The notes: a model not told the origin generated them from the sequence alone. DNA of 64,000 nucleotides from Candidatus Levyibacteriota bacterium (GCA_016432345.1 CP066685.1:695740-759739); one strand, 5' to 3'; counted from the first letter of the stretch, positions 3,290-27,871 are shown. Numbers and translations: made by a program.

Positions 3290-3314
3290 CCTCGTTTTCT
3301 GCTATAATATATAC

Positions 3315-3337
3315 ACCGCATAAGGCGGTTTTTTTAA
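3315..3337 (+). terminator. Putative intrinsic terminator after the metallopeptidase gene
   Basis: ACCGC-ataag-GCGGT hairpin followed by a T7 run, immediately 3' of the stop at 3289. Confidence 0.45.
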
Positions 3338-3339
3338 TT

Positions 3340-8763: not shown

Positions 8764-8781
8764 GACTATTTTTATGATTAG

Positions 8782-8865
8782 TGCCGAGGACAGGAGTCGA
8801 ACCTGCACGCTTTTTATAGCACTACCACCTCAAGGTAGCGGGTATACCAGTTTCCCCACCTCGGC
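8782..8865 (-). tRNA. tRNA-Leu (anticodon GAG), type II
   Basis: Reverse complement GCCGAGG...CTACC-TTGAGGT-GGTAG, long variable arm, GGTTCGACTCC, CCTCGGC-A. Confidence 0.85.
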
Positions 8866-9544: not shown

Positions 9545-9629
9545 GTGCCGAAGAGAGGATTCGAACCTCCACGAGCTTTAGGCTCACAGCGTTCTGAACA
9601 CTGCATGTCTACCATTCCATCACTTCGGC
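9545..9629 (-). tRNA. tRNA-Leu (anticodon CAG), type II
   Basis: Reverse complement GCCGAAG...CAGTG-TTCAGAA-CGCTG, long variable arm, GGTTCGAATCC, CTTCGGC-A. Confidence 0.8.
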
Positions 9630-10380: not shown

Positions 10381-10935
10381 ATGGTAAAAAAAGGAGTGCT
10401 TCTTTTTACAGTGCTGGCAATTATCTATCAAAACTTTATTCCAAATGTCTTTGCGCAGAAATCTGCAGGATCGTCTGCTGTGTCTATTGTCACACTTCCA
10501 GAACAAGAAGAAGACGCAAGAGTAAAAATTCTTAAAAAATATCTTGAAAAATACAATTCGCCTTTGGTAAATTATGCTAGTGTCTTTGTTGCGGAAGCTG
10601 ACAAAAACAATATTGATTATAGATTGCTTGTGGCTATATCTGGTGTCGAATCCACCTTTGGACAACAAATTCCTAATAATTCCTACAATGCGTGGGGATG
10701 GGGAATTTATGGCGATAATATGATTAGATTTTCGTCTTGGAACGAAGCTATTGCAACTATATCTGGCGAACTTAGACAAAAATATATAAATCAGTGGGGA
10801 GCTAAAGATGTCTATCAGATTGGAAGGTTTTATGCTGCTTCACCAACATGGGCATCCCGTGTTAATTACTTTATGGAAAAAATAAACGCGTTTGCCCTAA
10901 AAAATCCGGGGCAGTCTCTTCCCATTTCACTCTAA
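10381..10935 (+). CDS. Secreted lysozyme-like / lytic-transglycosylase-like peptidoglycan hydrolase, paralog 2
   Basis: Signal peptide; the same architecture (KYxSPLxxYA...DxRLLxAISGVESTFG...WGWGIYGD...) aligns along its whole length with the preceding ORF. Confidence 0.5.
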   Translation: MVKKGVLLFTVLAIIYQNFIPNVFAQKSAGSSAVSIVTLPEQEEDARVKILKKYLEKYNSPLVNYASVFVAEADKNNIDYRLLVAISGVESTFGQQIPNNSYNAWGWGIYGDNMIRFSSWNEAIATISGELRQKYINQWGAKDVYQIGRFYAASPTWASRVNYFMEKINAFALKNPGQSLPISL

Positions 10936-10959: not shown

Positions 10960-11042
10960 GGGTCGGTGGCGGAACTAGGTATACGCGTATGGTTTAGGAC
11001 CATATCCCGAAAGGGTTGGAGGTTCGATTCCTCTCCGACCCA
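10960..11042 (+). tRNA. tRNA-Leu (anticodon TAG), type II
   Basis: GGGTCGG acceptor; anticodon stem TATGG/CCATA with loop TTTAGGA; long variable arm CCCGAAAGGG; GGTTCGATTCC; CCGACCC-A. Confidence 0.75.
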
Positions 11043-11055
11043 CCCGTAAATAATT

Positions 11056-11917: not shown

Positions 11918-12511
11918 ATGCAAATTACAACGCAAAAAAAGCAGAAAAACTCTTTAGGGCAATTTGTTGATCAAAACCCGGTCGAAGCAATTCGCAGTAT
12001 CGGTGGTGGTACCGAGTGGACTAATGATTTTTGGGAACAACTACTTGGTGAGAAAGAAAAGAAACAACCTCAAAAAAGTGGCGAACTTCAGGAAGGACAA
12101 GATCTTAATTTATCAATTGAACCAGGAATTGATTACAGACGAGAAATAATTCATGGTTCAGAAAAAATAGCCTCCGAAGAAAACCAGGCTCTTATTCAAC
12201 AAATAGAAATGATAGTTCTTGAACTTAAACGCTTGAGCGCATCTTCAAAAGAATTGGAAATTGAATTCAAAGATGTAATTGTTACCCAAAATGTGGTTAA
12301 ACCCGGCAAATATCACCAGGGTTTTTTTGAATGGATGCTAATAATTATTAAAACTGCCCGCCTGCGAATAGAAGATGCTGGCGCCTGGCTTTCTGCCATG
12401 AAAGGCAAAAAAGGTAAAAAACAATCACAAAATTACTGGGAAAGATTTAAAAAAGAGGGCACCACTTTTGGCCTCTCCAACGAACGCGTCGTTTCCACCC
12501 AAACAGGGTAA
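11918..12511 (+). CDS. Hypothetical protein (charged, Lys/Glu-rich)
   Basis: Uninterrupted ORF with coding-like composition; no recognisable motif. Start chosen at the internal ATG downstream of the tig stop. Confidence 0.4.
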   Translation: MQITTQKKQKNSLGQFVDQNPVEAIRSIGGGTEWTNDFWEQLLGEKEKKQPQKSGELQEGQDLNLSIEPGIDYRREIIHGSEKIASEENQALIQQIEMIVLELKRLSASSKELEIEFKDVIVTQNVVKPGKYHQGFFEWMLIIIKTARLRIEDAGAWLSAMKGKKGKKQSQNYWERFKKEGTTFGLSNERVVSTQTG

Positions 12512-12529
12512 AATAAAAGGGTTATTAAT

Positions 12530-13150
12530 ATGAATGAGTTACCCACCGCTGGTAATCCCGAAACCTCCCGCTTTCCAGAATTTGAGTATGGAAGAGATTT
12601 ATATGTTCAACTTTTTAAGGATGATACTCCTTTTGTTAACTTAGGTTATCTTCCTTATCAAAGAATTATAGCAGAAAGGGCACTCAGTATTTTAGAAAAT
12701 GATGGACATATTAGGCTAACACCTATGCCTTGTGCTACGTTCACAGGAGAAAAAGGAGATCTTGGTGATGCTGTATATCTCTATTTGCTCAGGCATGACG
12801 GGTACAGTCTTCACGCTGATGTGGAAGTCCCAGAAGGCGGTATTGATCAATCTTGGATTTTAAGACATACTTTTTTTGGAAGTGAAGCTAGCAGCACAGT
12901 TGTAGAAATTAATATGCTTCCGGGAGACACTAATTGTGAAGATCTAACTAGTTTAGTTAGACATTTATATGAGGAAAAAGGAGTACAAATAGGTGGTCAT
13001 CCAGAAATTCATTTAGAACCGGACGCATTGTTATCCCGAGTAAAATCAGCTTTGTCTTCCTCAACACACCAGGTGTGTGGTAGCTTGACACATAAGGAAA
13101 AATGGTACAATCGTTATGATGATTACGAAGCTTTACTGTTATGTAGATGA
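12530..13150 (+). CDS. Hypothetical protein; region is GC-richer than its surroundings
   Basis: 206-aa ORF with no motif recognised; its end overlaps the DUF3800 gene start. Confidence 0.4.
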   Translation: MNELPTAGNPETSRFPEFEYGRDLYVQLFKDDTPFVNLGYLPYQRIIAERALSILENDGHIRLTPMPCATFTGEKGDLGDAVYLYLLRHDGYSLHADVEVPEGGIDQSWILRHTFFGSEASSTVVEINMLPGDTNCEDLTSLVRHLYEEKGVQIGGHPEIHLEPDALLSRVKSALSSSTHQVCGSLTHKEKWYNRYDDYEALLLCR

Positions 13151-13696
13151 AAGCGGTCAAAATACAAAAGGAAAAGTATTTGTCGTTTCTGTGGTTGTAA
13201 CAGGTCAAAAACGGGAAGAACTTATAAAGATTTGTGAACAATTAGAACAAGTTAGTGGTAAGCGGAAGGATAAATGGGGCGAAGCTGATCATGAAGAACG
13301 AATGCGTTATCTTCATCATATTTTTGCAGATGACCGTTTTAGGGGCTGTTTACGCTACGAAGTGTTTCGTCAAACAATCGATTACGATACGGCAACTATT
13401 AAAGGTATTGTTGCATCAATAAAATGGGAAAAACCGAGTAGCAAGTATACTACGCTTATATATTGATGGACTTAGAAAAACAAAACGGCATGAATATGGA
13501 GCAAAACTTCGTCATTTGGGACTATCTGTTAGAAAAGTACAAGGAATTGCGAAAGACGAAAGTAATACTTTAACTCGTCTTGCTGATGCTATTGCTGGCT
13601 TTGTACTTGACGCAGTGGATGGCACATCGGAAGAGATAAAAGCATTATTTCGAAAAGCAAAGCGGGATAGTATGCTTATTGAAGTTTCTCCATAAA
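13116..13696 (+). pseudogene. DUF3800-family protein, interrupted by a +1 frameshift near 13440-13466
   Basis: N-terminus KLYCYVDESG (DUF3800 YxDESG signature). Frame A stops at 13466; the downstream part (IDGLRKTKRHEYG...LTRLADAIAGFVLDA...) continues in frame +1 to 13696 and matches the conserved C-terminal half of the family. Confidence 0.55.
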
Positions 13697-13809
13697 AAAA
13701 CCACCCACTAAGGGGTGGAGGAGCCTAGTCTTTTGAGAGACACATGCCATAACGGACAGTTTTCAGCTCTGATTTGCATTATTTATATCACATTTCTGCT
13801 TTTTCGTCA

Positions 13810-13911
13810 ATGCCAAAAAATCAACAGTTGATTTTACTCGGAAAATTCTATACAATTCTAAAGGTGAAACAATTTTGCATTCTTACTGTCGTCCTTATTG
13901 ATCTCGCATAA
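13810..13911 (+). CDS. Putative ilv leader peptide (33 aa: MPKNQQLILLGKFYTILKVKQFCILTVVLIDLA), 14 of 33 residues Ile/Leu/Val
   Basis: Short ORF whose stop lies 2 nt before the first of the alternative stem-loop segments upstream of ilvB; the C-terminal third is ILTVVLIDL. Confidence 0.55.
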   Translation: MPKNQQLILLGKFYTILKVKQFCILTVVLIDLA

Positions 13912-13942
13912 ACGAGCGGGGCTGACTGTAGAAAAACATACT

Positions 13943-13966
13943 CCCGCTCATAAGCGGGATTTTTTT
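13943..13966 (+). terminator. Attenuator terminator: CCCGCT-cata-AGCGGG plus T7, abutting the ilvB ATG
   Basis: 6-bp GC-rich stem followed by TTTTTTT. The upstream segment GAGCGGGG (13914-13921) can pair with TCCCGCTC (13942-13949) as a mutually exclusive antiterminator. Confidence 0.55.
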
Positions 13967-15652
13967 ATGAAACAAATGTCGGGTGGGCATATGCTGATGG
14001 AAACTTTCTTAAAAGAAGGTGTGGATTTAATTTTTGGCTATCCAGGGGGCGCTATTATGCCTGTATATAATGCCCTGTATGATTACCGAGGAAAAATCCG
14101 CCATATCTTAGTCCGCCACGAGCAAGGCGCATCCCACGCCGCAGAAGGATATGCCCGCATAACTGGCAAACCAGGTGTTTGCTTGGCCACTTCTGGTCCC
14201 GGCGCCACCAATCTTATTACCGGCATTACCGATGCCTTAATGGACTCTGTGCCTTTAGTCTGTATTACAGGACAAGTTGCTTCCCATTTGGTTGGAACAG
14301 ATGCTTTTCAGGAAGCAGACATCGTTGGCATGACTACACCAATTACTAAATGGAATTACCAAATTACCAAAGCCTATGAAATCGTTAACGTCATTGCCAA
14401 AGCATTTAGTATTGCCAAATCAGGCAGACCTGGACCTGTTTTAATTGATATTACCAAAGACGCCCAAATTGATACAGGCAGTTTTTCCTACAAACCATAC
14501 CAGATTAAAAAAACATATCTCTCGCTTATTACACAAAAGAATAATATTAAAAAAGCAGCAGACCTTCTAAATAATGCCAAACGGCCTTATGTACTTATTG
14601 GTCATGGAGTGCAAATTTCATATGCCGAAAAAGAGCTTTTACAGTTTGTAGAAAAAGGCGGATTTCCGACTGCCGCAACCATCCACGGATTATCTTCTCT
14701 TCCCGCCAATCATCCTCTTTATGTTGGCATGCTTGGTATGCACGGCAATTACGGATCTAACATCCTAACAAACAAAGCAGATGTGATTATTGCCATCGGC
14801 ATGCGATTTGACGATAGGGTAACAGGAAGAATAAAAGACTATGCGCCTCAAGCCAAAATTGTTCATGTTGACATTGATCAAAGCGAGCACAATAAAATTA
14901 TAAAAACCGCTTTGGCAATAGTTGGCGACGCAAAAGAAGTTTTGCGAAAACTTATCCCCCTTATTAAGAAAAACTCTCACGCAGAGTGGATAAAAGAGTT
15001 TAGAAAATGTGATGCAATAGAATATGAAAAAGCCGTTCGCCCCGAAATGGCGCCAACAACCCCTCTTATCAAGATGGCAGAAGTTATCGCCATGCTGTCA
15101 AAAAAAACAAACGGCCAATCTATTATTGTTGCCGATGTGGGACAACATCAAATGATGGCAGCGCGTTATTATAAATTTCAAAAACCGAAAAGCTTTATCA
15201 CATCCGGCGGACTTGGCACTATGGGTTTTGCTTTACCGGCAAGTATTGGTGTCAAACTCGCCAGTCCAAAACGAAATGTAATTGCTGTTATTGGCGATGG
15301 CAGTTTTCAAATGACTATTCAAGAACTGGCAACAATTACCCAGGAAAAATTACCTGTTAAAATAATACTATTGAATAATAACTATTTAGGTATGGTGCGA
15401 CAATGGCAAGAGTTATTTTTTGACAGAAGGTATTCTTTTGTCGATTTAGATAATCCGGATTTTATCCAAGTGGCAAAAGGATTTCGCATTCCAGGCTTAA
15501 AAGTGGAAAAACGAAAAGATTTGGCAAAGGGAGTAGATAAAATGCTTTTAGCAAAAACACCATTTCTTTTGGAAGTGCATGTCGAAAAGGAAGGAAATGT
15601 TTTTCCCATGATGCCAACCGGCGCTTCGGTGGAGGAGATAAGACTGGAATAA
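13967..15652 (+). CDS. ilvB: Acetolactate synthase (acetohydroxy-acid synthase) large subunit
   Basis: ThDP enzyme: GVDLIFGYPGGAIMP N-terminal motif, GDGSFQM ThDP-binding motif; roughly 560 aa. The start could instead be the ATG at 13991 or 13997. Confidence 0.9.
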   Translation: MKQMSGGHMLMETFLKEGVDLIFGYPGGAIMPVYNALYDYRGKIRHILVRHEQGASHAAEGYARITGKPGVCLATSGPGATNLITGITDALMDSVPLVCITGQVASHLVGTDAFQEADIVGMTTPITKWNYQITKAYEIVNVIAKAFSIAKSGRPGPVLIDITKDAQIDTGSFSYKPYQIKKTYLSLITQKNNIKKAADLLNNAKRPYVLIGHGVQISYAEKELLQFVEKGGFPTAATIHGLSSLPANHPLYVGMLGMHGNYGSNILTNKADVIIAIGMRFDDRVTGRIKDYAPQAKIVHVDIDQSEHNKIIKTALAIVGDAKEVLRKLIPLIKKNSHAEWIKEFRKCDAIEYEKAVRPEMAPTTPLIKMAEVIAMLSKKTNGQSIIVADVGQHQMMAARYYKFQKPKSFITSGGLGTMGFALPASIGVKLASPKRNVIAVIGDGSFQMTIQELATITQEKLPVKIILLNNNYLGMVRQWQELFFDRRYSFVDLDNPDFIQVAKGFRIPGLKVEKRKDLAKGVDKMLLAKTPFLLEVHVEKEGNVFPMMPTGASVEEIRLE

Positions 15653-15653
15653 T

Positions 15654-15902
15654 ATGAACATTCAAACCTATACCATAACAGTTGAATCCGAAAATAAACC
15701 AGGAGTACTCTACCGTATCGCCGGTATTTTTGTGCGGCGAAAAATTAATGTTGAAAGTTTGTCTGTTGCCGAAACAAAAACTAAGGGCTTGTCAAAATTT
15801 TCAATTATTGCTAATATTACACCATACAACGCAAAAAGAGTTATTGAAAGCATTAAAAAAATTGTGGAAGTAACCGACGTTAATGCCGTAATCAAAAAAT
15901 GA
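15654..15902 (+). CDS. ilvN: Acetolactate synthase small (regulatory) subunit, minimal ACT-domain form
   Basis: 82 aa; ACT fold pattern ITVESENKPGVLYRIAGIFVRRKINVESL; positioned between ilvB and ilvC. Confidence 0.8.
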   Translation: MNIQTYTITVESENKPGVLYRIAGIFVRRKINVESLSVAETKTKGLSKFSIIANITPYNAKRVIESIKKIVEVTDVNAVIKK

Positions 15903-15946
15903 AACAAAATAATAATAACCTACAAAAACTCTAAACTGCCTCTTAT

Positions 15947-16993
15947 ATGAAAATAAATTTTGGCGGTGTCATCGAAGACGTGGTCACCCGAAAAGAATTT
16001 CCATTGACAAAAGCAAAGCAAGTGCTTAAAGACGAGGTAATTGCAGTAATTGGTTATGGCGTGCAAGGACCAGCCCAGGCATTAAACTTGCGGGATAACG
16101 GCTTTAGTGTGATTGTGGGACAACGAAAAGGTGGTCAGTCATTTGAAAAAGCCCAAAAAGACGGCTGGAAAGAGGGAAAAAACCTTTTCGATATAGAAGA
16201 AGCGGCAAAACGGGGAACCATTATTTGTTACCTTCTTTCCGATGCCGGGCAAATTCAATCCTGGCCGATTATTAAAAAACATCTAACACCTGGCAAAGCC
16301 TTATATTTTTCTCACGGCTTTGGTATAACTTACAAAAAACATACCAAGATTGTACCGCCAAAAAATGTTGATGTTATTTTGGTGGCCCCCAAAGGCTCGG
16401 GACGCACTGTCCGCAAACTCTTTACCGAAGGTAAAGGCATTAACAGCAGTTTTGCCATTTTCCAGGACGCCACAAAAAAAGCAAAAGAACGAATACTTGC
16501 AATAGGCATAGCCATAGGATCGGGTTATTTATTTGAAACAACGTTTGAAAAAGAGGTTTTTAGCGACCTAACAGGAGAAAGAGGCGTTTTAATGGGCGCC
16601 ATTGCCGGGGTTATGGAAGCGCAGTATAATTTGCTTCGCAAAAAGGGGCACACGCCATCGGAAGCATTTAACGAAACGGTCGAAGAAGCCACCCAAAGTC
16701 TTATTCCTTTAATTTCCGAAAACGGCATGGACTGGATGTTTGCCAATTGTTCAACCACGGCACAGCGCGGAGCGCTAGATTGGAAAGGAAAATTTAGAAA
16801 AGCTGTCGAACCGATATTTAATGATTTATACAAAAAAGTAAAATCAGGTTACGAAGCGCAGGTTACCATTAAAGCAAATAGCAAGAAAAATTATAAAGTT
16901 GGTTTGCAAAAAGAATTAGACACCATCAAAAATTCCGAAATGTGGAAAACAGGAACCACCGTCCGCTCCCTTCGCCCCGAACGACAAAAGTAA
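15947..16993 (+). CDS. ilvC: Ketol-acid reductoisomerase
   Basis: Rossmann motif GYGVQGPAQALNLRDNG; class I KARI length (348 aa). Confidence 0.9.
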   Translation: MKINFGGVIEDVVTRKEFPLTKAKQVLKDEVIAVIGYGVQGPAQALNLRDNGFSVIVGQRKGGQSFEKAQKDGWKEGKNLFDIEEAAKRGTIICYLLSDAGQIQSWPIIKKHLTPGKALYFSHGFGITYKKHTKIVPPKNVDVILVAPKGSGRTVRKLFTEGKGINSSFAIFQDATKKAKERILAIGIAIGSGYLFETTFEKEVFSDLTGERGVLMGAIAGVMEAQYNLLRKKGHTPSEAFNETVEEATQSLIPLISENGMDWMFANCSTTAQRGALDWKGKFRKAVEPIFNDLYKKVKSGYEAQVTIKANSKKNYKVGLQKELDTIKNSEMWKTGTTVRSLRPERQK

Positions 16994-16997
16994 GCGT

Positions 16998-17026
16998 TTG
17001 ACAAATAAGACACAACCTCTTATACT
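16998..17026 (+). promoter_or_regulatory. Sigma70-like promoter TTGACA-17 nt-TATACT; predicted start site falls at the leader ATG (leaderless leader mRNA)
   Basis: -35 TTGACA at 16998-17003, 17-nt spacer, -10 TATACT at 17021-17026, 7 nt before the ATG at 17034. Confidence 0.5.
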
Positions 17027-17033
17027 ACGATTA

Positions 17034-17090
17034 ATGAAGACAAATCAAAACATTCTCCTTACTATTGATCTCCTCCTTACGGAGATCTAA
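17034..17090 (+). CDS. Putative leu leader peptide (18 aa: MKTNQNILLTIDLLLTEI), 6 Leu and 3 Ile
   Basis: Short ORF ending 35 nt before the terminator hairpin; the Leu codons lie inside a self-complementary segment GATCTCC..GGAGATC. Confidence 0.6.
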   Translation: MKTNQNILLTIDLLLTEI

Positions 17091-17124
17091 TGGTTTGGGA
17101 GAAATAATTTTTAGATAATAACAA

Positions 17125-17150
17125 TCTCCCAAGCAAGGGAGATTTTTTTT
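17125..17150 (+). terminator. Attenuator terminator: TCTCCC-aagcaa-GGGAGA plus T8, abutting the leuA ATG
   Basis: Hairpin followed by TTTTTTTT. The upstream GGGAGA (17096-17101) and GGAGATC (17081-17087) can pair with ATCTCCC as alternatives; the 3' arm GGGAGA also serves as the Shine-Dalgarno for leuA. Confidence 0.6.
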
Positions 17151-18293
17151 ATGAAAAAACAGATTTTTATTTTTGACACAACTTTAAGGGATGGCGAGCA
17201 AGTACCCGGCTGTCAGTTAAATACTATTGAAAAAATTCAGGTGGCAAAAGCCTTAGACGAGCTTGGAATTGACATTATCGAAGCGGGCTTTCCAATCTCC
17301 AGCCCAGGAGATTTAAAATCTATTATTGAACTTTCCAAAGTCGTAACTCGGCCTACCATTTGCTCCTTATCCCGCGCTATTAAAGAAGATATTGATGCGG
17401 CCGCAGAAAGTCTAAAATTTGCCAAGCATAAACGAATACACACATTTATAAGCTCTTCCGATGTACAAATTAAATATCAGTTTAAATCCACCCGCGAAAA
17501 AATTATGCAGCAAGGCATTGAGGCTGTAAAATATGCCAAAAAGTTTACCCAGGATGTGGAATTTTCGGCCATGGACGCAGGCCGATCTGACAACGCATTT
17601 TTAGCAAAATTTATCGAAAATACAATCAAAGCCGGAGCCACTACTGTTAACATTCCCGACACTACAGGTTATTGTTTACCCGATGAGTTTGGTGAAAAAA
17701 TTAAATACTTATTCGAAAATGTCAAGGGAATTGATAAAGTAATTGTCAGCGTCCACTGCCATAACGACCTAGGACTAGCTACCGCTAATACCATTGCCGC
17801 TGTCCAAAATGGCGCGCGGCAAATAGAAGTAACTGTCAATGGTGTAGGCGAGAGGGCAGGCAACACCTCGCTTGAAGAAGCAGTGATGATCTTAAAAACA
17901 AGAGTTGATTTAAACGCTACAACCAGCATTAATACCAAATTAATTTGTCAAACATCTCAACTTGTTTCCAAACTTATGCACATGCCTGTTCAGCCAAACA
18001 AAGCCATCGTTGGCAAAAATGCCTTTGCCCACTCGTCAGGTATCCATCAAAACGGCGTCTTAAAAAACCGATTTACCTACGAAATTATTAACCCGGAAGA
18101 TGTTGGTGCTAAATCTTCGCTTGTTCTTACAGCCAGATCAGGACGATCAGCTTTAAGGTACCATTTAGAACGCTTGGGTTACAAAAAACTTTCCCAAACC
18201 CAAATTAATAGTACTTATCAAAAATTTTTAATGCTGGCAGACCAGAAAAAAGATTTAGGCGACAATGATTTAAAATATCTAATGAGTAATTAA
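17151..18293 (+). CDS. leuA: 2-isopropylmalate synthase, short form without the C-terminal regulatory domain (LeuA/CimA family)
   Basis: [10 protein letters not shown] motif and a HxH metal-site region in a DRE-TIM barrel; only 380 aa. Confidence 0.8.
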
Positions 18294-18295
18294 AT

Positions 18296-19978
18296 ATGAA
18301 AAGAAGCGATGCCTTAACTAAAGGAATTAAACGCGCGCCTGCCAGGGCAATGCTGCGGGCAGTTGGGTTTACAGATAAAGATTTTGGGAAACCAATTATA
18401 ACTGTGGCCTGTCCTTATACCAATGCCACCCCCTGCAATGCCCATATCCAGGATTTAGGCAACATAGCCCTGTCTGAAATAGAAAAAAAGGGTGGCAAAG
18501 GATTTATTTTTGGTACCCCTGTTGTCACAGATGGCGAAACAATGGGCATGGAAGGCATGAAGTATTCTCTTGTTAGCCGCGAACTTATTGCCGATTGCAT
18601 CGAAACCATGCACGAAGCGTATTCAGCCGATGCTGCTTTTACACTATCAGGATGCGACAAAACTATCCCAGCAGCTCTTATGCCACTGGCACGAAATAAC
18701 AATGTTGGACTAACACTTTATGGCGGAACAATTCGCCCAGGAAAATATAAAGGCAAAGATTTAACTATTGTTAGTACCTTTGAAGCAGTAGGAAGTTATA
18801 TTGCTGGAAAAATATCAGATGACGAACTTCATCAAATAGAGTGTCATTCTTGTCCAGGCAACGGCGCTTGCGGAGGCATGTATACGGCCAATACCATGGC
18901 TTCGGCGATTGAGGCTTTAGGAATGAGTATTCCGGGCAGCGCATCCCACCCGGCAGTTGATAAGCATAATAAAATTTCAGTAAAAAAAGTACAAGATATT
19001 AAAAAATCAATAACCGCACTCTTTATGCTTCTGGAAAAGAATATCCGAGCGCGGGATATTATAACTAAAAAGGCCTTTGAAAACGCTATCACAGTTGTTT
19101 TGGCATTGGGCGGTTCCACAAATGCAGTACTTCATCTTATTGCTCTTGCTCATGAAGCAGAAATAAATCTAACAATTGACGATTTTACTCGCATTGGCAA
19201 AAAAATTCCTTTAATTGGCAATTTTAAACCCTTTGGCGACTATGTAATGGAAGATTTAGATAATATTGGCGGCGTACCAATGGTAATGAAAATGCTCCTT
19301 GATGCAGGACATCTATATGGAGATTGCCTAACAGTCACTGGAAAAACCGTGTCCGAAAATCTTAAAAATGCCCCAAAACGGGAAACCAACCAAAACGTTA
19401 TTTATAGTCTCGAAAAACCATTATCTCCTCCACAACATCATATTATTATTTTAAGAGGCAACCTTGCGCCTGATGGCGCAGTGTTAAAACTAAGCGGAAA
19501 AGAAATGAAGTTTCATTCTGGTCCTGCCCGGGTTTTTAACTGCGAAGAAGAAGCTTTGGACGCAATTCTGCAGGGAAAAATAAAAAAAGGCGATTGTGTT
19601 GTAATTCGCTACGAGGGGCCAAAAGGCGGCCCGGGCATGCGGGAAATGCTTTCGCCATCCAGCGCTTTAATGGGCGCGGGACTTGGCAAAGATGTAGCTT
19701 TAATTACCGATGGACGTTTTTCTGGCGGCACACACGGCATCATGGTTGGCCACATTGCGCCAGAAGCAGAAAGAGGCGGACCAATTGCAACTATAAAAGA
19801 GGGTGATACAATAACAATTGATCTTGCAAAACGGACAGTTGATGTCGAACTTTCGAATGTCGAAATTAAAAAACGGCTGACAAAATGGAAAGCGCCAAAA
19901 GCGCAATACACCAGGGGCGTTTTGGCAAAGTACGCAAAATTAGTCTCAAGCGCAAGTAAAGGAGCGGTAACATCATGA
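18296..19978 (+). CDS. ilvD: Dihydroxy-acid dehydratase
   Basis: [17 protein letters not shown] Fe-S cluster motif; 560 aa. Confidence 0.9.
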
Positions 19979-20346
19979 AAATAATCAAAACCAAAAAAGC
20001 GCCAGCTGCGATCGGACCATACTCACAAGCAATTGTAGCAGGAGATTTTGTTTTCTGTTCTGGTCAGATTGGTATCAATCCAACAACAGGTAACCTGGTT
20101 GAAGGAATCGAAGACCAAACCAAACAAGTAATCACAAATCTTCAAGCAGTGCTCAAAGCCGCAAGGTTAGACCTTGCAAGTGTGGTAAAGACAACAGTAT
20201 TTCTCAAAAATATAAATGATTTTCCAAAGATGAACAATGTGTTTGCTTCTTTTTTCGACAAACATAAACCAACCCGCTCCACAATCGAAGCATCAAATCT
20301 CCCTAAAAATGCACTAGTCGAGATAGACGCGATAGCCCTCAAATGA
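19975..20346 (+). CDS. ridA: RidA (YjgF/TdcF) reactive enamine/imine deaminase
   Basis: 123 aa; [11 protein letters not shown]...FVSGQ-like signature; translationally coupled within the ilv-leu operon. Confidence 0.8.
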
Positions 20347-21719
20347 AACCAAAAACACTATTTGAAAAAATTTGGGATAGCCACGTGGTGTATCAAAAAA
20401 AGAACTATCCTGATGTTTTATATATCGACGCCCACTTAATCCACGAAGTTACCAGCCCCCAAGCCTTTGATGGTCTACGCAAAAGAAATCTCCCGGTTTT
20501 TCGCAGCATTCGCACCTGGGCCACAGCCGACCACAATGTCCCAACCAAAAATCAAGACAAACCAATCAAAGAAATACTCTCAAGAAAACAAGTTGAAATG
20601 CTTACCAAAAATTGCAAAGAGTTTGGTATTCGCCTCTATGGCCTTGGCCATCCATATCAAGGCATCGTCCATATTATTGGCCCGGAGCTTGGCATTACCA
20701 AACCTGGAATGACGATAGTTTGTGGTGATAGCCACACTTCCACTCACGGCGCGTTTGGCAATATTTCTTTTGGCATTGGTACAAGTGAAGTCGAACAGGT
20801 TTTAGCGACCCAAACTATCTTGCAATACAAACCCAAAACTATGCTGATAACTGTTGATGGAAAGTTAAAAAAAGGTGTTGTTGCAAAAGATATTATTCTT
20901 TACATTATTTCAAAAATATCAACAAGCGGCGCAACAGGCTACTTTGTTGAGTATGCCGGGTCAACCATTCAAAATCTTTCCATGGAAGCCAGAATGACTA
21001 TCTGCAACATGAGTATCGAAATAGGAGCCCGAGGTGGCCTAATTGCGCCAGATAAAACAACATTTGCCTACATGAAAAACCGAAAGTTTATGCCAAAAAA
21101 CAAAGAATGGGATAAAATAATCGCATATTGGAAAACCTTACCATCCGACAAAGACGCTATATACGACAAAGAGCTACATTTCGATGCAACAGACATAGAA
21201 CCAATGATTACCTATGGCACCAATCCCGGCATGGGAGTAAAAATCACAGAAAAAATCCCAAACGTTCCAACAGCCGAAAAAGCCCTTACCTATATGAATT
21301 TAAAAGCTGGAACTCCCATGATTGGATTAAAGATAGATTATGTTTTCTTGGGAAGCTGTACGAATTCCAGGATTGAAGACCTGCGTTTAGTTGCCAGTAT
21401 TGTTAAGGGGAAAAAGAAAGCAAAAAATGTTGATGTTTTTGTTATCCCAGGTTCCAAGCAAGTAGAAAAACAGGCCAAAAAAGAGGGGATAGATAAAACT
21501 CTTAAAAATGCTGGTTTCGAACTAAGGGAACCAGGATGTTCGGCCTGTTTGGGAATGAATGAAGACAAAATTCCTGCTGGAAAATACTGCATCTCAACAT
21601 CAAATCGCAACTTTGAAGGCCGCCAAGGCCCAGGTGCCAGAACTTTTTTAGCAAGTCCACTAACAGCCGCGGCGGCGGCAATTACAGGTAGAATTACAGA
21701 TGTCAGAACAATATTATGA
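20343..21719 (+). CDS. leuC: 3-isopropylmalate dehydratase large subunit
   Basis: Aconitase-family motifs ([21 protein letters not shown]); 458 aa. Confidence 0.9.
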
Positions 21720-22282
21720 AAACTATAATTTCAACCTGCGTACCATTACCAATAGAAAATATTGACACCGACCAAATTATTCCGGCCAGGTTTCTTAAAG
21801 CCACAACCCGAGAAGGTTTTGGTGAAAACTTATTTCGGGACTGGCGCGCAAAGGATAATTTTGTTCTTAACAATCCAGCATACTTTGGCAAAATTTTAGT
21901 TGCCGGGAAAAATTTTGGCTGCGGCTCCAGCCGCGAACACGCCGCCTGGGCTATAAAAGATTATGGCTTTAAAGCTGTAGTTTCCAGCTTTTTTGCGGAC
22001 ATATTTAAAAACAACGCACTCAACAACAACCTTCTTCCAGTCCAAATCAGCGAATCATTCCTGCAAAAACTTTTTAAAGCAATAGAAAAAGATCCAAAAA
22101 CAAAAGCAACTATTGACCTTGAAAAACAAATCATATCTTTTAACTCTCAAAAAGAAAAGTTTGATATTAACCCATATAAAAAAACGTGCTTAATATATGG
22201 ATATAACGATATAGAATACCTTTTGTCAATAAAAGACAAAATTAAAGAGTATGAGAAAAACAATAGCAATTTTGCCAGGTGA
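21716..22282 (+). CDS. leuD: 3-isopropylmalate dehydratase small subunit
   Basis: 188-aa aconitase swivel domain ([13 protein letters not shown]); overlaps leuC by 4 nt. Confidence 0.85.
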
Positions 22283-23306
22283 TGGGATAGGCCCAGAAAT
22301 TATAGAACAAGCAATAAAAGTGCTCAAAATTGTGGGTACAAAATTTAATCACGAATTTGTGTTCGAATATGGACTAATAGGTGCTATAGCAATAGATAAA
22401 ACTGGAAACCCTTTACCAAATGAAACGCTTAAACTATGTAAGTCAACAGACGCTATTTTATTCGGCGCAATCGGCGATCCAAAATACGACAATGATCCAA
22501 GCGCAAAAATTAGACCCGAACAAGGGCTTTTAAAACTTCGAAAATCCCTAGACCTTTATGTCAACGTCCGCCCAATTCGGGTATTTGAAAAACTAAAAAG
22601 CAAATCTCCTTTGAAAGGAGAAATTTTAGAAGGTGTTGATTTTGTGGTAGTACGAGAACTTATAGGAGGGATTTATTTTGGAAAGCGGGGAAGAAGAAAA
22701 AACGGAACAGTAGCCTACGATACCTCCACATATTCAAAAGCAGAAATTGAAAGAGTAGCAAAATTCGCCTTTGAGCTTGTGCTGACTCGGAAGAAACATA
22801 TCACAGTTGTTGATAAAGCCAATGTATTGGAAACTTCGCGCCTTTGGAGAGAAACAATTCAAGAACAATCGAAACAATATAACAATGTAACAATCGAATT
22901 CATGTTTGTCGACAACGCGGCAATGCAGATTATTAAAAAACCAAGTAGTTTCGATGTAATTTTAACCGAAAATATGTTTGGAGACATTCTCACGGATGAA
23001 GCCTCGGTCATCACTGGTTCAATTGGTATGTTGCCCTCTGCATCAATCGGCGCAAAAACCTCGCTGTATGAACCAATTCATGGCTCATATCCAAAAGCCA
23101 AAGGATTAAATACTGCAAATCCTATTGGGACAATCCTTTCTGCAGCAATGATGCTCGAATATAGTTTTGGACTTATAAAAGAAGCAAAATCAATAGAAAA
23201 CGCCGTCGAAAAAGCAATCAATCTTGGTTTCGGCACAAAAGACATCGTTTCAAATAATCCACTTGGTACTTCAGAACTAGGCACCAAAATCGCATCTTTG
23301 ATATAA
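22251..23306 (+). CDS. leuB: 3-isopropylmalate dehydrogenase
   Basis: [12 protein letters not shown]-terminus and [12 protein letters not shown] motif; 351 aa. Confidence 0.9.
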
Positions 23307-23497
23307 TAGATGTTAATGAACAGCCGAGTATTTACCCCAGATGAGGTTGCCAAAAACACCACTGAGGGAAAATTCTATTCTGTTTTTCAAGAAAAATAAT
23401 AAACATTACATCCTTCGCTGACAAAAATCTTCTTAAACACCAAAGCTACTGTAATTGTCTTTATCTAGCCAATTTGCTACAATAAATTAACTTTTTT

Positions 23498-23571
23498 GGG
23501 CGCATAGCTCAGTTGGTTAGAGCGTTACATTGACATTGTAAAGGTCTCAGGTTCGAATCCTGATGCGCCCA
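23498..23571 (+). tRNA. tRNA-Val (anticodon GAC)
   Basis: GGGCGCA-TAGCTCAGTTGGTTAGAGC...TTACA-TTGACAT-TGTAA...GGTTCGAATCC...TGCGCCC-A. Confidence 0.85.
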
Positions 23572-23659
23572 CAAGTGATCTAATTGGATTATAAAAAGAC
23601 CCAGTTGACACCCACGAAATTACTTTTGCTAGACTACTTATCACTCTATTTATCACTCT

Positions 23660-23998
23660 ATGAAAAAAGCAAAAACCAGTCCTCAAAACGAGAATCTCAC
23701 AGATATTCTTAAACTTCTTACCAAAAGAATCGAAGAAGTAGCTGTTGATGTATACGGAATAAAAGGGAGCATAGCAAGAATTGATCTTAAAGTGCATGCT
23801 ATAGACATGAATACCAAATTAACAAAATCGGACGTAGAAAGATTAAGTAAAGAAGTAAAAAAGGTTGAAAAAAGAATTATTAACGAAGTTGGAAAATTCA
23901 TTGATCAAGCTATTCTTCCACAACTCGATGATAAAGCCGATAAAAAAGATGTAGAACGATTGGAAGGAAAACTCGACAGTCTTTTACACGCAAATTAA
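23660..23998 (+). CDS. Hypothetical coiled-coil protein
   Basis: 112-aa Lys/Glu-rich ORF with heptad character and no identifiable motif. Confidence 0.35.
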   Translation: MKKAKTSPQNENLTDILKLLTKRIEEVAVDVYGIKGSIARIDLKVHAIDMNTKLTKSDVERLSKEVKKVEKRIINEVGKFIDQAILPQLDDKADKKDVERLEGKLDSLLHAN

Positions 23999-24003
23999 TT
24001 TGA

Positions 24004-24032
24004 TTGACAATAATAAATTTGTCTGCTAGTAT
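24004..24032 (+). promoter_or_regulatory. Sigma70-like promoter TTGACA-17 nt-TAGTAT, 7 nt upstream of the ilvA leader ATG
   Basis: -35 at 24004-24009, -10 at 24027-24032; leader ATG at 24040. Confidence 0.4.
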
Positions 24033-24039
24033 ACATACA

Positions 24040-24084
24040 ATGAATAAAAATCAAATTATCACAATTACCACCATTCCTTCCTAA
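24040..24084 (+). CDS. Putative ilvA leader peptide (14 aa: MNKNQIITITTIPS), 4 Ile and 4 Thr
   Basis: Short ORF whose stop codon is immediately followed by GGGAGGTG, the first arm of the alternative structures. Confidence 0.55.
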   Translation: MNKNQIITITTIPS

Positions 24085-24108
24085 GGGAGGTGTGTTTTTG
24101 TAAGAAAT

Positions 24109-24136
24109 ACCTCCCATAAAGGGAGGTTTTTTATTT
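24109..24136 (+). terminator. Attenuator terminator: ACCTCCC-ataaa-GGGAGGT plus U-run, 5 nt before the ilvA ATG
   Basis: 7-bp stem followed by TTTTTATTTT. The upstream GGGAGGTG (24085-24092) can pair with ACCTCCC as the antiterminator. Confidence 0.55.
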
Positions 24137-24141
24137 TAACC

Positions 24142-25392
24142 ATGAACAATACTGTTACAATTAAAACAATCGAAGAGGCTTCTAAACGAATCAATGGCAT
24201 AGCCAAAAATACACCACTGCAGCATGCCAAAAGACTTTCCGAACTTTTTGAAGCCACCATCTTTTTAAAACGCGAAGACCTTCAACGAGTGCGTTCTTAC
24301 AAAATTCGAGGCTCCTATAATCTGATGAAGTCGCTTTTGGACAAGGAAAAAGCAAACGGCGTTGTCTGCGCCAGCGCGGGCAACCACGCGCAAGGAGTAG
24401 CCTACAGCGCGGCAGCGCTTAAAATACATGCCGACATTTTTATGCCGGTTAAAACACCGCTGCAGAAAATAAACCGAGTCAAGCATTTCGGAGGAGCATG
24501 GATAAAAATCCACCTGGTTGGCAATACCTATGATGAAAGTTATAAAGAGGCTTTAAAGTATTGCAAAGATAAAAAAGCCACCCTTGTTCATCCCTTCGAT
24601 GATCCTCGCGTAATATCGGGAGCAGGCACCATTGCCAAAGAAATTTACGACGAGTTAGGCCAAAATATTGACTATATAATTTGTACAATTGGCGGAGGAG
24701 GATTAATTTCTGGAGTGGGAACATATCTTACTCAAAAAATAAAAAAAATAAAGGTGATAGGAACAGAACCAAAGGGAGCGCCAAGTATGTACGAGGCATT
24801 AAAAAAAAGAAAAGTTATTACACTCGATGCTATCGATACCTTTGTCGATGGGGCGGCAGTAAAAACAGTAGGCCAAAAAACATTTGATATTGCAAAAACT
24901 GTAGTAAGTGAGATTATTTTAGTTCCAGAAGGCAAAGTTTGCACTACTATGATTGATCTTTATCAAAATGAAGGGATTGTCGCAGAACCAGCAGGCGCGC
25001 TTTCGATCTCTGCTCTTGACTTTATGGCAGAAAAAATAAAAGGAAAAACTGTTGTTTGCATTTTAAGCGGCGGCAATAACGACATTTTAAGATACCCAGA
25101 AATTATGGAAAGAAGTCTTATATATCTTGGAAGAAAACACTATTTTCTTATTGAGTTTGCGCAAAAACCTGGACAGCTTAGACAGTTTGTGGATAAGGCG
25201 CTTGGTCCAACCGATGACATTGTGCGCTTTGAATACATCAAAAAAAGCGCCAAAGAAACAGGTCCGGCATTGGTTGGCATCGAGCAGGAAAAAAAAGAAG
25301 ATTACGATAAACTCATACACCAAATGAATAACTTTGGTATTATATACAAAATAATAACTTCTAATGATCTTATCTATAATTATCTTATATAA
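24142..25392 (+). CDS. ilvA: Biosynthetic threonine dehydratase (threonine ammonia-lyase) with a C-terminal regulatory domain
   Basis: PLP-lysine motif (KREDLQRVRSYKIRGSYN), glycine-rich loop (GNHAQG, GGGGLISG), ACT-like C-terminal domain; 416 aa. Confidence 0.85.
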   Translation: MNNTVTIKTIEEASKRINGIAKNTPLQHAKRLSELFEATIFLKREDLQRVRSYKIRGSYNLMKSLLDKEKANGVVCASAGNHAQGVAYSAAALKIHADIFMPVKTPLQKINRVKHFGGAWIKIHLVGNTYDESYKEALKYCKDKKATLVHPFDDPRVISGAGTIAKEIYDELGQNIDYIICTIGGGGLISGVGTYLTQKIKKIKVIGTEPKGAPSMYEALKKRKVITLDAIDTFVDGAAVKTVGQKTFDIAKTVVSEIILVPEGKVCTTMIDLYQNEGIVAEPAGALSISALDFMAEKIKGKTVVCILSGGNNDILRYPEIMERSLIYLGRKHYFLIEFAQKPGQLRQFVDKALGPTDDIVRFEYIKKSAKETGPALVGIEQEKKEDYDKLIHQMNNFGIIYKIITSNDLIYNYLI

Positions 25393-25432: not shown

Positions 25433-26671
25433 ATGAAGGATACAAAAAATCTAAAAGATCACAAGCAAATTGGCCAAGAGCTTGAATTATTTTTTACTCA
25501 TGACATAGCTCCTGGCGCTCCATTTTGGCTTCCTCGCGGCCTGATTATCTTTAAACAACTTGAAAAATATATTAGAGAACTAACAGAAAATGCCGGATAT
25601 TTAGAAACATCAACCCCCATAATGGTAAAATCTGAGCTGTTTAAGCAATCTGGACACTGGGAAAAATTTGGCGCGCATAATATGTATAATTTACAACTTT
25701 CAGATGAAAATGATGATTCTAAACCAGTTAGTTATTCCCTAAAACCAATGAACTGTCCCGAATCAACCATAATTTATAGATTTAGACCCAGATCGTATAG
25801 AGAATTACCCTTAAGACTGTCCGAAATTGGCAGGCTTCATAGAAGAGAAAAATCAGGGGAAGTAAACGGACTGCTTCGAGTTAGACAGTTAACTATGGAC
25901 GATGCGCATATTTATGCTACTGAAGAGCAAATTTTTGATGAGGTTTCTAATATTTTGGACATGATGATACATTTTTACGAAAGTTTTGGTTTTGAGTATG
26001 AATTCCGATTTGCCACCAGACCAGAATCCAGAGCAGGAAATGATAAAATGTGGGACAAAGCGGAAAACGCGCTATATCAAGCTTTAAAAAAGAAAAAAAT
26101 TAAAGCAGGGGACAAAATGGGAGACGGAGCATTTTATGGACCAAAAATAGACTTGCACATTAAAGATTCCCAAAAAAGAGAATGGCAACTTGCAACAGTT
26201 CAACTGGACTTCCACCAACCAGAAGCGTTTAATTTAAAATATATAGATGAAAATGGCGAGTCGCAAAGACCTGTTATGATTCACAGGGCAATCTTTGGTT
26301 CATTTGAAAGATTTATTGGTATTCTAACAGAACACTATCAAGGTAAATTTCCGCTGTGGCTTTCTCCTGTGCAAATAATACTTGTTCCAATTGCTGATCG
26401 ACACAAAGAGAAGGCAGAAAAAATCTTCAAAAAGTTACAAAATGAAGGTATTAGAGTAGAAATTGATGATCGAAAAGAGACGATGCAATCTAAAATTAGA
26501 GATGCCACTTTACAAAAAGTGCCATATATGGGTATAATAGGAGATAAAGAAACCGAAAAATCGGGCGAGTTTCTTTTGTCTGTAAGAACACGAGAGGGAA
26601 AAGATCTAGGACAATTAGCTTTCCCAATGTTTTTACAAAGGGTAAAAGAAGAAATTGATACGAAGGTTTAA
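25433..26671 (+). CDS. thrS: Threonine--tRNA ligase, catalytic core plus anticodon-binding domain only (no TGS or N2 editing domains)
   Basis: Starts directly at the DHKQIGQELELFF motif (canonical DHRKLGxELDLF, which normally lies about 240 aa into ThrRS); class II motifs and the C-terminal anticodon-binding domain are present. Sits in the conserved thrS-infC-rpmI-rplT order. Confidence 0.8.
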   Translation: MKDTKNLKDHKQIGQELELFFTHDIAPGAPFWLPRGLIIFKQLEKYIRELTENAGYLETSTPIMVKSELFKQSGHWEKFGAHNMYNLQLSDENDDSKPVSYSLKPMNCPESTIIYRFRPRSYRELPLRLSEIGRLHRREKSGEVNGLLRVRQLTMDDAHIYATEEQIFDEVSNILDMMIHFYESFGFEYEFRFATRPESRAGNDKMWDKAENALYQALKKKKIKAGDKMGDGAFYGPKIDLHIKDSQKREWQLATVQLDFHQPEAFNLKYIDENGESQRPVMIHRAIFGSFERFIGILTEHYQGKFPLWLSPVQIILVPIADRHKEKAEKIFKKLQNEGIRVEIDDRKETMQSKIRDATLQKVPYMGIIGDKETEKSGEFLLSVRTREGKDLGQLAFPMFLQRVKEEIDTKV

Positions 26672-27395: not shown

Positions 27396-27743
27396 ATGAG
27401 AGTAAAACGAGGTACAGTTTCTAGACGAAAACATAACAAACTTCATTCTCTTACCAAGGGATATAGAGGTACCAAAAGCCGCCTTACAAAGGTGGCAAAA
27501 GAAGCAATCCTTCATGCGGGCGCGTACGCGTTTCATGGAAGAAAACTTCGCAAACGAGACATACGCCAACTTTGGATTACACGTATTGGCGAAGCATCCA
27601 AACAGATGGGAATTTCTTACAGTGTTTTTATGAATAAGTTAAAAAAAGCAAATATTTTACTTGACAGAAAAATTCTAAGCGAACTTGTTGTAAATGATAC
27701 TGCTGCTTTTAAACAAGTAATTGACTCTGTTAAAAATATCTGA
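27396..27743 (+). CDS. rplT: 50S ribosomal protein L20
   Basis: MRVKRGTVSRRKHNK... canonical L20 N-terminus; 115 aa. Confidence 0.9.
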   Translation: MRVKRGTVSRRKHNKLHSLTKGYRGTKSRLTKVAKEAILHAGAYAFHGRKLRKRDIRQLWITRIGEASKQMGISYSVFMNKLKKANILLDRKILSELVVNDTAAFKQVIDSVKNI

Positions 27744-27749
27744 TAAGAT
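27721..27749 (+). promoter_or_regulatory. Sigma70-like promoter TTGACT-17 nt-TAAGAT overlapping the rplT 3' end, 10 nt upstream of the aromatic leader ATG
   Basis: -35 at 27721-27726, -10 at 27744-27749. Confidence 0.35.
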
Positions 27750-27759
27750 CAATCTACCA

Positions 27760-27813
27760 ATGAAACAATTCAACAATAGAAAAATTACTTTTTGGTTTTA
27801 TTTTACCTCCTAA
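27760..27813 (+). CDS. Putative aromatic leader peptide (17 aa: MKQFNNRKITFWFYFTS), with Phe-Trp-Phe-Tyr-Phe in 6 consecutive codons
   Basis: Short ORF directly followed by AGCGGGGA and a strong terminator before the DAHP synthase gene. Confidence 0.6.
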   Translation: MKQFNNRKITFWFYFTS

Positions 27814-27843
27814 AGCGGGGACTATTTGCGTGTTGCAAATAAG

Positions 27844-27866
27844 ATCCCCCAAAGGGGGATTTTTTG
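27844..27866 (+). terminator. Attenuator terminator: ATCCCCC-aaa-GGGGGAT plus TTTTT, 5 nt before the DAHP synthase ATG
   Basis: 7-bp stem (5 consecutive G-C pairs), 3-nt loop, U-run. The upstream GCGGGGA (27815-27821) can pair with TCCCCC as the antiterminator. Confidence 0.6.
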
Positions 27867-27871
27867 TATTT

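Follow-up and report, generated by a model that had tools for sequence, protein, structure and literature searches.

A probable leucine leader-peptide attenuator with its own promoter between ilvC and leuA of a Candidatus Levyibacteriota bacterium

The control of leu and ilv genes by leader-peptide attenuation is a classical mechanism. In enterobacteria, the leuL leader presents four consecutive CUA/CUC Leu codons, and the Leu-rich attenuators of Firmicutes such as Staphylococcus aureus and Lactococcus precede the operon as a whole, with a leader open reading frame (ORF) that is led by a Shine-Dalgarno (SD) sequence. For the S. aureus ilv-leu operon, a Leu-rich attenuator peptide has been described (PMC5794164), and leader peptides outside the Proteobacteria and Actinobacteria have been noted in Firmicutes (PMC2965389). 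Actinobacterial leuA carries the so-called LEU element, in which the Leu codons form a pseudoknot with the SD sequence of leuA and which has no obvious terminator (PMC1262725). In Deinococcus deserti, 14 leaderless leader peptides were predicted from transcription starts mapped by differential RNA sequencing (dRNA-seq) (PMC4007540). Here, we describe a stretch of 64,000 nucleotides from a Candidatus Levyibacteriota bacterium (GCA_016432345.1 CP066685.1:695740-759739), referred to as the window, in which the 157-nt spacer between ilvC and leuA (16994-17150) very probably holds a leader-peptide (ribosome-mediated) transcription attenuator that, according to our folding models and the comparison of relatives, would sense charged tRNA-Leu and control leuA-ilvD-ridA-leuCDB.

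The leuA leader and its alternative folds

The element, which like the flanking ilvBNC and leuA-to-leuB genes lies on the plus strand, opens with a sigma-70-type promoter consisting of TTGACA (-35, 16998-17003) and TATACT (-10, 17021-17026) with a 17-nt spacer. With 11 of 12 matches, this promoter ranks as the best sigma-70-like site of a 14-kb scan. A distance of 7 nt separates the -10 hexamer from the leader ATG at 17034, and the predicted transcription start is 17033 or 17034, in line with a first-pass annotation of the sequence that had placed the start at this ATG or 1 nt before it. The leader ORF that follows (17034-17090, 18 codons plus TAA, MKTNQNILLTIDLLLTEI, as read from the sequence) has Leu at codons 8, 9, 13, 14, and 15 (CTC CTT, then CTC CTC CTT), amounting to 5 of the 18 codons with one run of three, and it contains three Ile codons. 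The first-pass annotation gave the same number of Ile but six Leu; this count aside, all of the sequence features it described are present where it placed them.

The 5' end of the leader is A-rich (AUGAAGACAAAUCAAAAC) and has no SD sequence. All five leader Leu codons are of the CUY type. CTC is the rarest Leu codon in the genes of the window (5%), yet it accounts for three of the five leader Leu codons, an excess that fits both a pairing requirement (CUCC with GGAG) and a heightened sensitivity to tRNA charging. Four tRNA-Leu genes are located in the first 11 kb of the window, at 272-356 (TAA), 8781-8865 (GAG), 9545-9629 (CAG), and 10960-11044 (TAG), and both types of leader Leu codon, CUC and CUU, would be decoded by tRNA-Leu(GAG), judging by its anticodon. 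A short ORF with at least five Leu codons and a Leu run of at least three arose in 35 of 5,000 dinucleotide shuffles of the spacer. The Leu-rich ORF, taken as a single sequence, is moderately unlikely to occur by chance, and the weight of the case therefore rests on the relatives described below.

The RNA from 17036 to 17160 folds with -40.1 kcal/mol, compared with -19.2 +/- 3.0 kcal/mol for shuffled sequences (z = -6.9), and none of 200 shuffles was as good. In the minimum-free-energy structure, region 1a (UUCUCCU, 17053-17059), which covers the Ile-Leu-Leu codons 7 to 9, pairs with GGGAGAA (17097-17103); this pairing forms without ribosome cover and encloses an inner hairpin (17061-17093) that extends across the stop codon and the second run of Leu codons. 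The hairpin core, a perfect 7-bp pairing of GAUCUCC (17067-17073) with GGAGAUC (17081-17087) that had been recognized at first pass, contributes -10.3 kcal/mol and is extended by ACUAUU:AAUGGU; it is possibly a pause hairpin. Region 2 (GUUUGGGAGAA, 17093-17103, which includes UUUGGGAGAA at 17094-17103) starts 3 nt past the leader stop and can pair either with region 1a or, as an antiterminator of 10 bp (17093-17102 with 17125-17134), with region 3. Region 3 (AAUCUCCCAAGC, 17123-17134) supplies the terminator 5' arm (17123-17130) as well as the antiterminator strand (17125-17134), and region 4 (GGGAGAUU followed by U8, 17137-17150) supplies the terminator 3' arm. The motif GGGAGA occurs at 17097-17102 and again at 17137-17142, with ATCTCCC at 17124-17130.

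The terminator itself is an 8-bp hairpin, AATCTCCC-aagcaa-GGGAGATT (17123-17144), in which AAUCUCCC is paired with GGGAGAUU, and it is among the terminator-like sites listed by the 14-kb scan. Its T8 run (17143-17150) ends one base before the leuA ATG at 17151, so that the hairpin and its U run touch the gene start, as originally annotated. Taken alone, the terminator has an energy of -11.7 kcal/mol, the antiterminator -14.0 kcal/mol, and the 1:2 composite -25.2 kcal/mol. A bidirectional terminator was considered and rejected, as the minus strand has no T-run.

The predicted transcript (17034-17150) was then folded with a 27-nt ribosome footprint masked at each A-site position. The 1:2 composite and the terminator form in the ribosome-free RNA and also when the A site is at codons 2 to 6. 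With the A site at codons 7 to 14 (ILLTIDLL), a range that takes in four of the five Leu codons, the antiterminator replaces the terminator, and with the A site at codon 15 to the stop, the terminator is seen again. A switch between terminator and antiterminator thus follows the position of the ribosome, and the alternative pairings put forward in the first-pass annotation are those favored by this folding as well as by the comparison of relatives.

We infer the start point, the translation of the leader, the stalling of the ribosome, and the response to leucine in vivo, and the proposed mechanism is as follows. RNA polymerase would start at approximately 17033/17034, giving a transcript that begins at the leader AUG or 1 nt before it, and a ribosome would load on this 5'-terminal AUG, in an organism that appears to use leaderless starts commonly. 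When leucine is ample, the ribosome would reach the UAA at 17088 and cover region 2, because region 2 starts only 3 nt after the UAA; region 3 would then pair with region 4, and the AAUCUCCC/GGGAGAUU hairpin with U8 would stop transcription just before the leuA AUG. In the absence of a ribosome, region 1a and the inner hairpin would hold region 2, and the terminator would form as well. When the Leu-tRNA that reads CUY (anticodon GAG) is scarce, the ribosome would stall within codons 7 to 14 and mask region 1, the 10-bp antiterminator between regions 2 and 3 would form, and polymerase would enter leuA.

Recurrence of the module among relatives

A LeuA-based scan of one genome per species and of a metagenome collection yielded 33 loci with leuA identities of 72 to 89%. 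In approximately 28 of these, a Leu-rich short ORF is found upstream of leuA, and in most of the approximately 28, a perfect-stem intrinsic terminator was recognized. Every one of these leaders is preceded by a promoter with 10 or 11 of 12 matches and a spacing of 17 to 18 nt (nearly always 17), with no intervening SD sequence, and the distance from the -10 to the leader start is 7 to 13 nt throughout (7 nt in the window and in the loci L001 and L002). The window, L001, and L002 have identical hexamers and identical 17-nt and 7-nt distances, and their spacer sequences differ; similarly, L143 has kept both hexamers, the 17-nt spacing, and 7 to 8 nt to the ATG, and its spacer sequence varies. 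This comparison strongly supports the view that the promoter is real and that the 5' untranslated region (UTR) of the leader would be 0 to 6 nt long.

The leaders fall into two subfamilies. Subfamily A, consisting of the window, L001, L002, L081/L091, and L143, has a common GGGAGA/UCUCCC design, and subfamily B comprises approximately 20 loci, with MKTSLNLLNLALLTV and MKFGLLLGLLLSR, each followed by a stop, as typical leaders. Regions 2, 3, and 4 read GGGAGA/UCUCCC/GGGAGA in subfamily A and CGGCGG/CCGCC(G)/GGCGG in subfamily B, in which GCGGGG/CCCCGC/GCGGGG, GGUGGG-type, and GGCGGG/CCCACC/GGUGGG variants are also seen; the three regions therefore co-vary between the subfamilies. A segment complementary to the terminator 5' arm was located 0 to 5 nt past the leader stop in 24 of 24 distinct loci tested, with duplex energies of -8.8 to -19.5 kcal/mol (mean z of -3.4 versus shuffles). 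When partners were swapped between types, the mean energy was -10.1 kcal/mol, compared with -14.7 kcal/mol for the loci's own partners. Among the close relatives, the inner hairpin shows two compensatory CG to UA changes, region 1a is invariant in five close relatives, and region 2 is invariant throughout subfamily A. That the arrangement recurs in approximately 28 related loci is decisive in showing that the feature exceeds chance.

The switch itself can also be followed in the relatives. Masked folding of full-length transcripts reproduces the switch for the window as well as for subfamily B. In transcripts cut before region 4, region 3 is sequestered with a ribosome on the Leu codons and free with a ribosome on the last codons or the stop, in each case in 25 of the 26 units modeled.

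Several observations weigh against the attenuator. No leader was found in 5 of the 33 loci with a leuA identity of at least 72% (L004, L006, L014, L015, and L090), nor in L077 (65%); of these, L004 has an assembly gap at this position, and L090 offers only 91 nt of upstream sequence. Helices 1a:2, 2:3, and 3:4 are invariant in the closest subfamily (five sequences) and give no covariation signal of their own. RNAalifold returned no consensus structure or pairs for a 19-sequence alignment of subfamily B, likely as a result of competing alternative folds and of indels around the terminator, and the per-locus duplex energies, shuffles, and partner swaps were used in its place. The stall window holds Ile, Thr, and Asp codons in addition to Leu, and the specificity for leucine may therefore not be strict. 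Finally, full-length folding at equilibrium leaves the terminator in place in the four closest relatives wherever (or nearly wherever) the ribosome is put, and L002 is the sole exception that shows no antiterminator even in the truncated-transcript model; since the terminator wins at equilibrium in these close relatives and L002 fails, the model needs kinetics. The conservation across relatives that the first-pass annotation had anticipated is thus borne out in part: the Leu-rich ORF is present in approximately 28 of 33 loci and regions 2, 3, and 4 co-vary between subfamilies, but the key helices do not vary within subfamily A. Its core reading, a leader-peptide attenuator for leucine with its own promoter, stands on both folding and relatives.

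Overlapping the leader stop (UAAUG) is an AUG from which a five-codon mini-ORF (MVWEK plus stop, 17090-17107) runs through region 2. The UAAUG overlap is also seen in L001, L002, and L081, with UAGUG in L143, and the length of the mini-ORF varies. It is probably incidental; re-initiation at this mini-ORF would favor termination.

Leaderless starts seem to be common in this genome. An SD-like core 4 to 12 nt upstream of the start was found for 4 of 52 window ORFs, roughly chance by our estimate, and TANNNT ends 5 to 8 nt before the start codon in 9 of the 23 window genes that have upstream non-coding DNA (expected, 11%; P = 4e-4). The genome therefore appears to contain many leaderless mRNAs and few SD sites. 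The suggestion that the GGGAGA of the terminator doubles as the leuA SD sequence was abandoned because of this window-wide scarcity and because the leuA genes of subfamily-B relatives have no SD-like sequence before them.

The relatives are labeled Candidatus Levyibacteriota, Microgenomates, Patescibacteria, or Saccharimonadales, some evidently generic labels aside. Five loci (L001, L004, L009, L010, and L012) are titled "uncultured Gammaproteobacteria" or "Acidiferrales," yet are syntenic with metagenome-assembled genomes (MAGs) of Levyibacteriota/Microgenomates, and their labels look unreliable. With the Levyibacteriota MAG L002, the window shares an ORF (window 10381-10935), tig (80% identity), a DUF5660 gene (63%), and ilvB in the same order. 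The taxonomic placement is based on such MAG labels together with synteny. The next-closest leuA genes, with approximately 68% identity, are those of Bacteroidota (Pedobacter and Chitinophaga). Bacteroidota as the source of the leader was rejected, since no comparable Leu leader was found upstream of their leu or ilv clusters. The Chitinophaga loci L017, L032, L034, L038, L042-L045, L049, and L063 share a short ORF ending in STSSLVLFLLNAS approximately 290 nt upstream of leuC, which may be an unrelated Leu-type leader in Bacteroidota.

Operon layout, sibling units, and rival explanations

The genes that flank the element were named by NCBIfam matches. Upstream, a unit at 13828-16993 with the promoter TTGATT-17-TACAAT, which precedes an ilvB leader, contains ilvB (13967-15652), ilvN (15654-15902), and ilvC (15947-16993, with its stop at 16991-16993). 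Downstream, leuA (17151-18293, 380 amino acids [aa]) is followed by ilvD (18296-19978), ridA (19975-20346), leuC (20343-21719), leuD (21716-22282), and leuB (22251-23306). No overlapping ORF of at least 80 aa is present on either strand of the ilvC-leuA spacer. Since ilvC has no terminator of its own, and its stop is only 4 nt from the next -35, transcripts that start at the ilvB promoter must extend into the Leu attenuator, and read-through from ilvC into it is plausible. Internal genes of the window also lack SD sequences, so internal initiation is evidently possible. If the leader were left untranslated on read-through transcripts, these would end by the default fold, and the attenuator would also be the terminator of ilvBNC.

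In most relatives, the promoter-leader-terminator module is the head of a separate leuACDB operon, as is the case in subfamily B, and most have no ilvC upstream. Within subfamily A, different genes precede the module. The window has ilvC directly before it. L001 also has ilvC upstream, but at a longer distance: 207 nt lie between ilvC and the start of leuA, approximately 90 nt of them before the -35. ORFs of unknown kind lie upstream of the module in L002, ilvA (772-2016) lies between ilvC and the Leu leader in L081, and a pilin-like gene (N_methyl motif) and an insertion sequence (IS) transposase (rve, rve_3) lie between ilvC and the leader in L143 (1046-2849). As the upstream gene varies while the module stays by leuA, the module travels with leuA. 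For the window, the best view is that the module heads the leuA-ilvD-ridA-leuCDB unit, which abuts ilvBNC, two transcription units having simply become neighbors. The nesting of the attenuator inside one operon, as first annotated, is therefore only one possible view of the arrangement. The notion that the attenuator gives leu genes control separate from ilv genes did not hold, because with ilvD and ridA behind it, there is no clean split of leu from ilv control.

The LeuA protein encoded in the window aligns only to positions 4 to 382 of the 516-position profile, and its Pfam content is HMGL-like and HCS_D2 only, which indicates that it lacks the C-terminal domain. The absence of this LeuA_dimer regulatory domain is shared by the Bacteroidota relatives at approximately 68% identity. 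The C-terminal domain of LeuA mediates leucine feedback inhibition, which judging by the sequence is probably absent from the LeuA of the window. With no feedback domain, control at the RNA level makes sense, and the attenuator suggests how such an enzyme stays under leucine control.

Three more units of the same design are present in the window, upstream of ilvB (with Ile, Leu, and Val codons), ilvA (Ile and Thr), and a gene for 3-deoxy-D-arabino-heptulosonate 7-phosphate (DAHP) synthase (Phe, Trp, and Tyr). Each consists of a promoter, a start codon 7 to 10 nt past the -10, a short ORF whose first codons are A-rich as in the leuA leader, and a C-rich/G-rich hairpin with a U-run. The ilvB attenuator (13828-13966; TTGATT-17-TACAAT and then 7 nt) has a GTG-started, predicted leaderless ORF (MKQFCILTVVLIDLA plus stop, 13864-13911) and a terminator, TCCCGCT-cata-AGCGGGA with T7 (hairpin, 13942-13959), whose U-run abuts the ilvB ATG at 13967; this leader is kept in L001 (MKQLCILTVVLLDLA) and L002 (MKKFAIVTLVLLDLA) with the 7-nt spacing unchanged. 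The ilvA attenuator (24004-24141; TTGACA-17-TAGTAT and then 7 nt to the ATG at 24040) has the leader MNKNQIITITTIPS plus stop (24040-24084) upstream of ilvA (24142-25392), and the U-run of its terminator (ACCTCCC-ataaa-GGGAGGT with a T-run, 24109-24133, as read from the sequence) ends 8 nt before the gene. The aromatic attenuator (27721-27871; TTGACT-17-TAAGAT and then 10 nt to the ATG at 27760) has the leader MKQFNNRKITFWFYFTS plus stop (27760-27813) upstream of DAHP synthase-aroB-aroA (gene ATG, 27872), and the U-run of its terminator (ATCCCCC-aaa-GGGGGAT with T6, 27844-27866, likewise from the sequence) ends 5 nt before the gene start. A whole-window scan for short ORFs abutting promoters gave no further convincing leader. 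Each sibling peptide is rich in the amino acids that its pathway produces, which provides independent support for sensing by the ribosome.

Three other explanations of the leuA element can be weighed. The hairpin and U8 might terminate ilvBNC constitutively or stabilize the RNA as a 5'-UTR hairpin, with the Leu ORF incidental and untranslated and leuA reached by unregulated partial read-through. The lack of a separate ilvC terminator, the occurrence of a Leu-rich short ORF in approximately 0.7 to 4% of shuffles of the C/T-rich spacer, and the invariance of the key helices among close relatives would all agree with this. However, a promoter lies upstream of the terminator, so leuA transcription would be killed as well; the Leu ORF, the promoter distance, and region 2 past the stop recur in approximately 28 loci while the sequences co-vary; and most of those loci have no upstream ilvC to terminate, which leaves this explanation very unlikely.

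In other phyla, the attenuation of leu and ilv genes relies on T-boxes or proteins. This general precedent is in favor of a second alternative, in which the switch is real but responds to a factor acting in trans, such as an RNA-binding protein, a small molecule, or uncharged tRNA, instead of to the translating ribosome. The Streptomyces work, in which leader-codon mutations were at odds with the prediction of classical attenuation (PMC1262725), points the same way. We nevertheless consider such a factor very unlikely here, as the RNA is only approximately 117 nt long and gave no T-box or riboswitch match at the thresholds tried, nothing "ligand-like" is conserved in it except the Leu codons and a stop codon at a fixed position relative to region 2, and the sibling units hold codons for the products of their own pathways. 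Finally, the short ORF could encode a functional hydrophobic micropeptide to which the RNA structures are secondary. The peptide C terminus is well conserved in subfamily B (LLNLALLTV), and trans-acting leader peptides are known, for example, peTrpL. Between subfamilies, however, only the Leu positions persist, the conserved nucleotides are those needed for pairing, and a peptide of 13 to 18 aa differs in each of the four sibling units and matches the respective pathway, so that a micropeptide is the most remote of the three. A leader-peptide attenuator read by the ribosome thus accounts best for the data.

A broader proposal is rather doubtful, namely, that a lineage of the Patescibacteria (candidate phyla radiation [CPR]) that has unusually kept branched-chain and aromatic synthesis regulates all of these pathways by leaderless attenuators and that the leuA attenuator insulates operons. 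Were it true, there would be four such attenuators in 64 kb, none of them in Rfam. The leaders would be loaded only at a 5'-terminal AUG, which would make the promoter an obligatory part of the sensor. Read-through transcripts of ilvBNC would then carry an untranslated leader and always terminate, and the leuA attenuator would double as the ilvBNC terminator, insulating two abutting operons.

Two further observations were made elsewhere in the window. The threonyl-tRNA synthetase (ThrRS) gene at 25433-26671 encodes only 412 aa, which align to positions 168 to 564 of the TIGR00418 profile; the N-terminal part is therefore lacking. At 3300-3340, a TATAAT-like box is followed by a hairpin, ACCGC-ataag-GCGGT with T7, that ends 4 nt before the typA ATG (3340). 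No leader ORF was seen in this region, and the hairpin would either terminate the upstream gene or serve as a further 5' control element.

Comparison with known attenuators

At E values of up to 10, the Rfam families RF00512, RF01743, and RF00230 (T-box) gave no match in 12500-24500, and no leader, T-box, or riboswitch family was found in the whole window at Rfam gathering thresholds; nor did the same three families match any of seven related loci at E values of up to 1. The Phe_leader family (RF01859) is the only Rfam leader-peptide family that scores on both the leuA element and its ilvA sibling, which share its attenuator architecture. Its matches, namely, 24.8 bits (E = 1.6) for the leuA element (17037-17150), 27.4 bits (E = 0.42) for the ilvA sibling, and 27.1 bits for the related locus L145, stay below the gathering score of 55, and the leuA element is not a member of RF01859. 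In full-text literature searches, we found no paper that joins the CPR or Patescibacteria with transcription attenuation or leaderless translation and none that pairs Levybacteria with branched-chain amino acids; a search for Microgenomates and amino acid biosynthesis returned only an unrelated TM6 genomics paper.

The element thus belongs to an uncatalogued leader family with no Rfam model, two co-varying subfamilies, and approximately 28 members. Its mechanism is a textbook one, and no principle is changed. Together with its three siblings, it indicates that this genome, with little use of SD sequences, senses amino acids via ribosome stalling on mini-ORFs that are predicted to be leaderless. 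For annotators, it is a reason not to merge ilvBNC and leuA-ilvD-ridA-leuCDB as one constitutive operon.

The closest counterpart in logic is the enterobacterial leuL leader (RF00512), with which the element shares a leader ORF with a Leu run, the 1:2/2:3/3:4 pairing scheme, an intrinsic terminator before leuA, and, in our models, the masking of region 2 by a ribosome at the stop codon. In contrast to leuL, it has no sequence or covariance-model similarity to RF00512 at any threshold tried, its leader is predicted to have neither a 5' UTR nor an SD sequence, its terminator is fused to the leuA AUG, its Leu codons are CUC/CUU in two clusters, and the unit behind it also includes ilvD and ridA. 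With the S. aureus ilv-leu attenuator and the Lactococcus leu/phe leader (RF01743), it has in common a Leu-rich peptide, a mixed ilv-leu cluster, and transcription attenuation. Like the actinobacterial LEU element, it combines an upstream ORF with a C/U-rich run of Leu codons whose complement, a G-rich segment, immediately precedes leuA; unlike that element, it has a canonical hairpin with U8, in a genome with no sign of SD use. In the predicted start of the transcript at the leader ATG or 1 nt upstream, the absence of an SD sequence, and a genome that appears rich in leaderless mRNAs, it resembles the leaderless attenuator ORFs of D. deserti and of actinobacteria, including mycobacteria. The phylum is a different one and the sequences are unrelated, and in D. 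deserti, the starts were mapped, whereas here the start is predicted from promoter spacing. In summary, the leuA element is, on the basis of sequence comparison, a new sequence family of a well-known mechanism and the first for its lineage found in our literature search.

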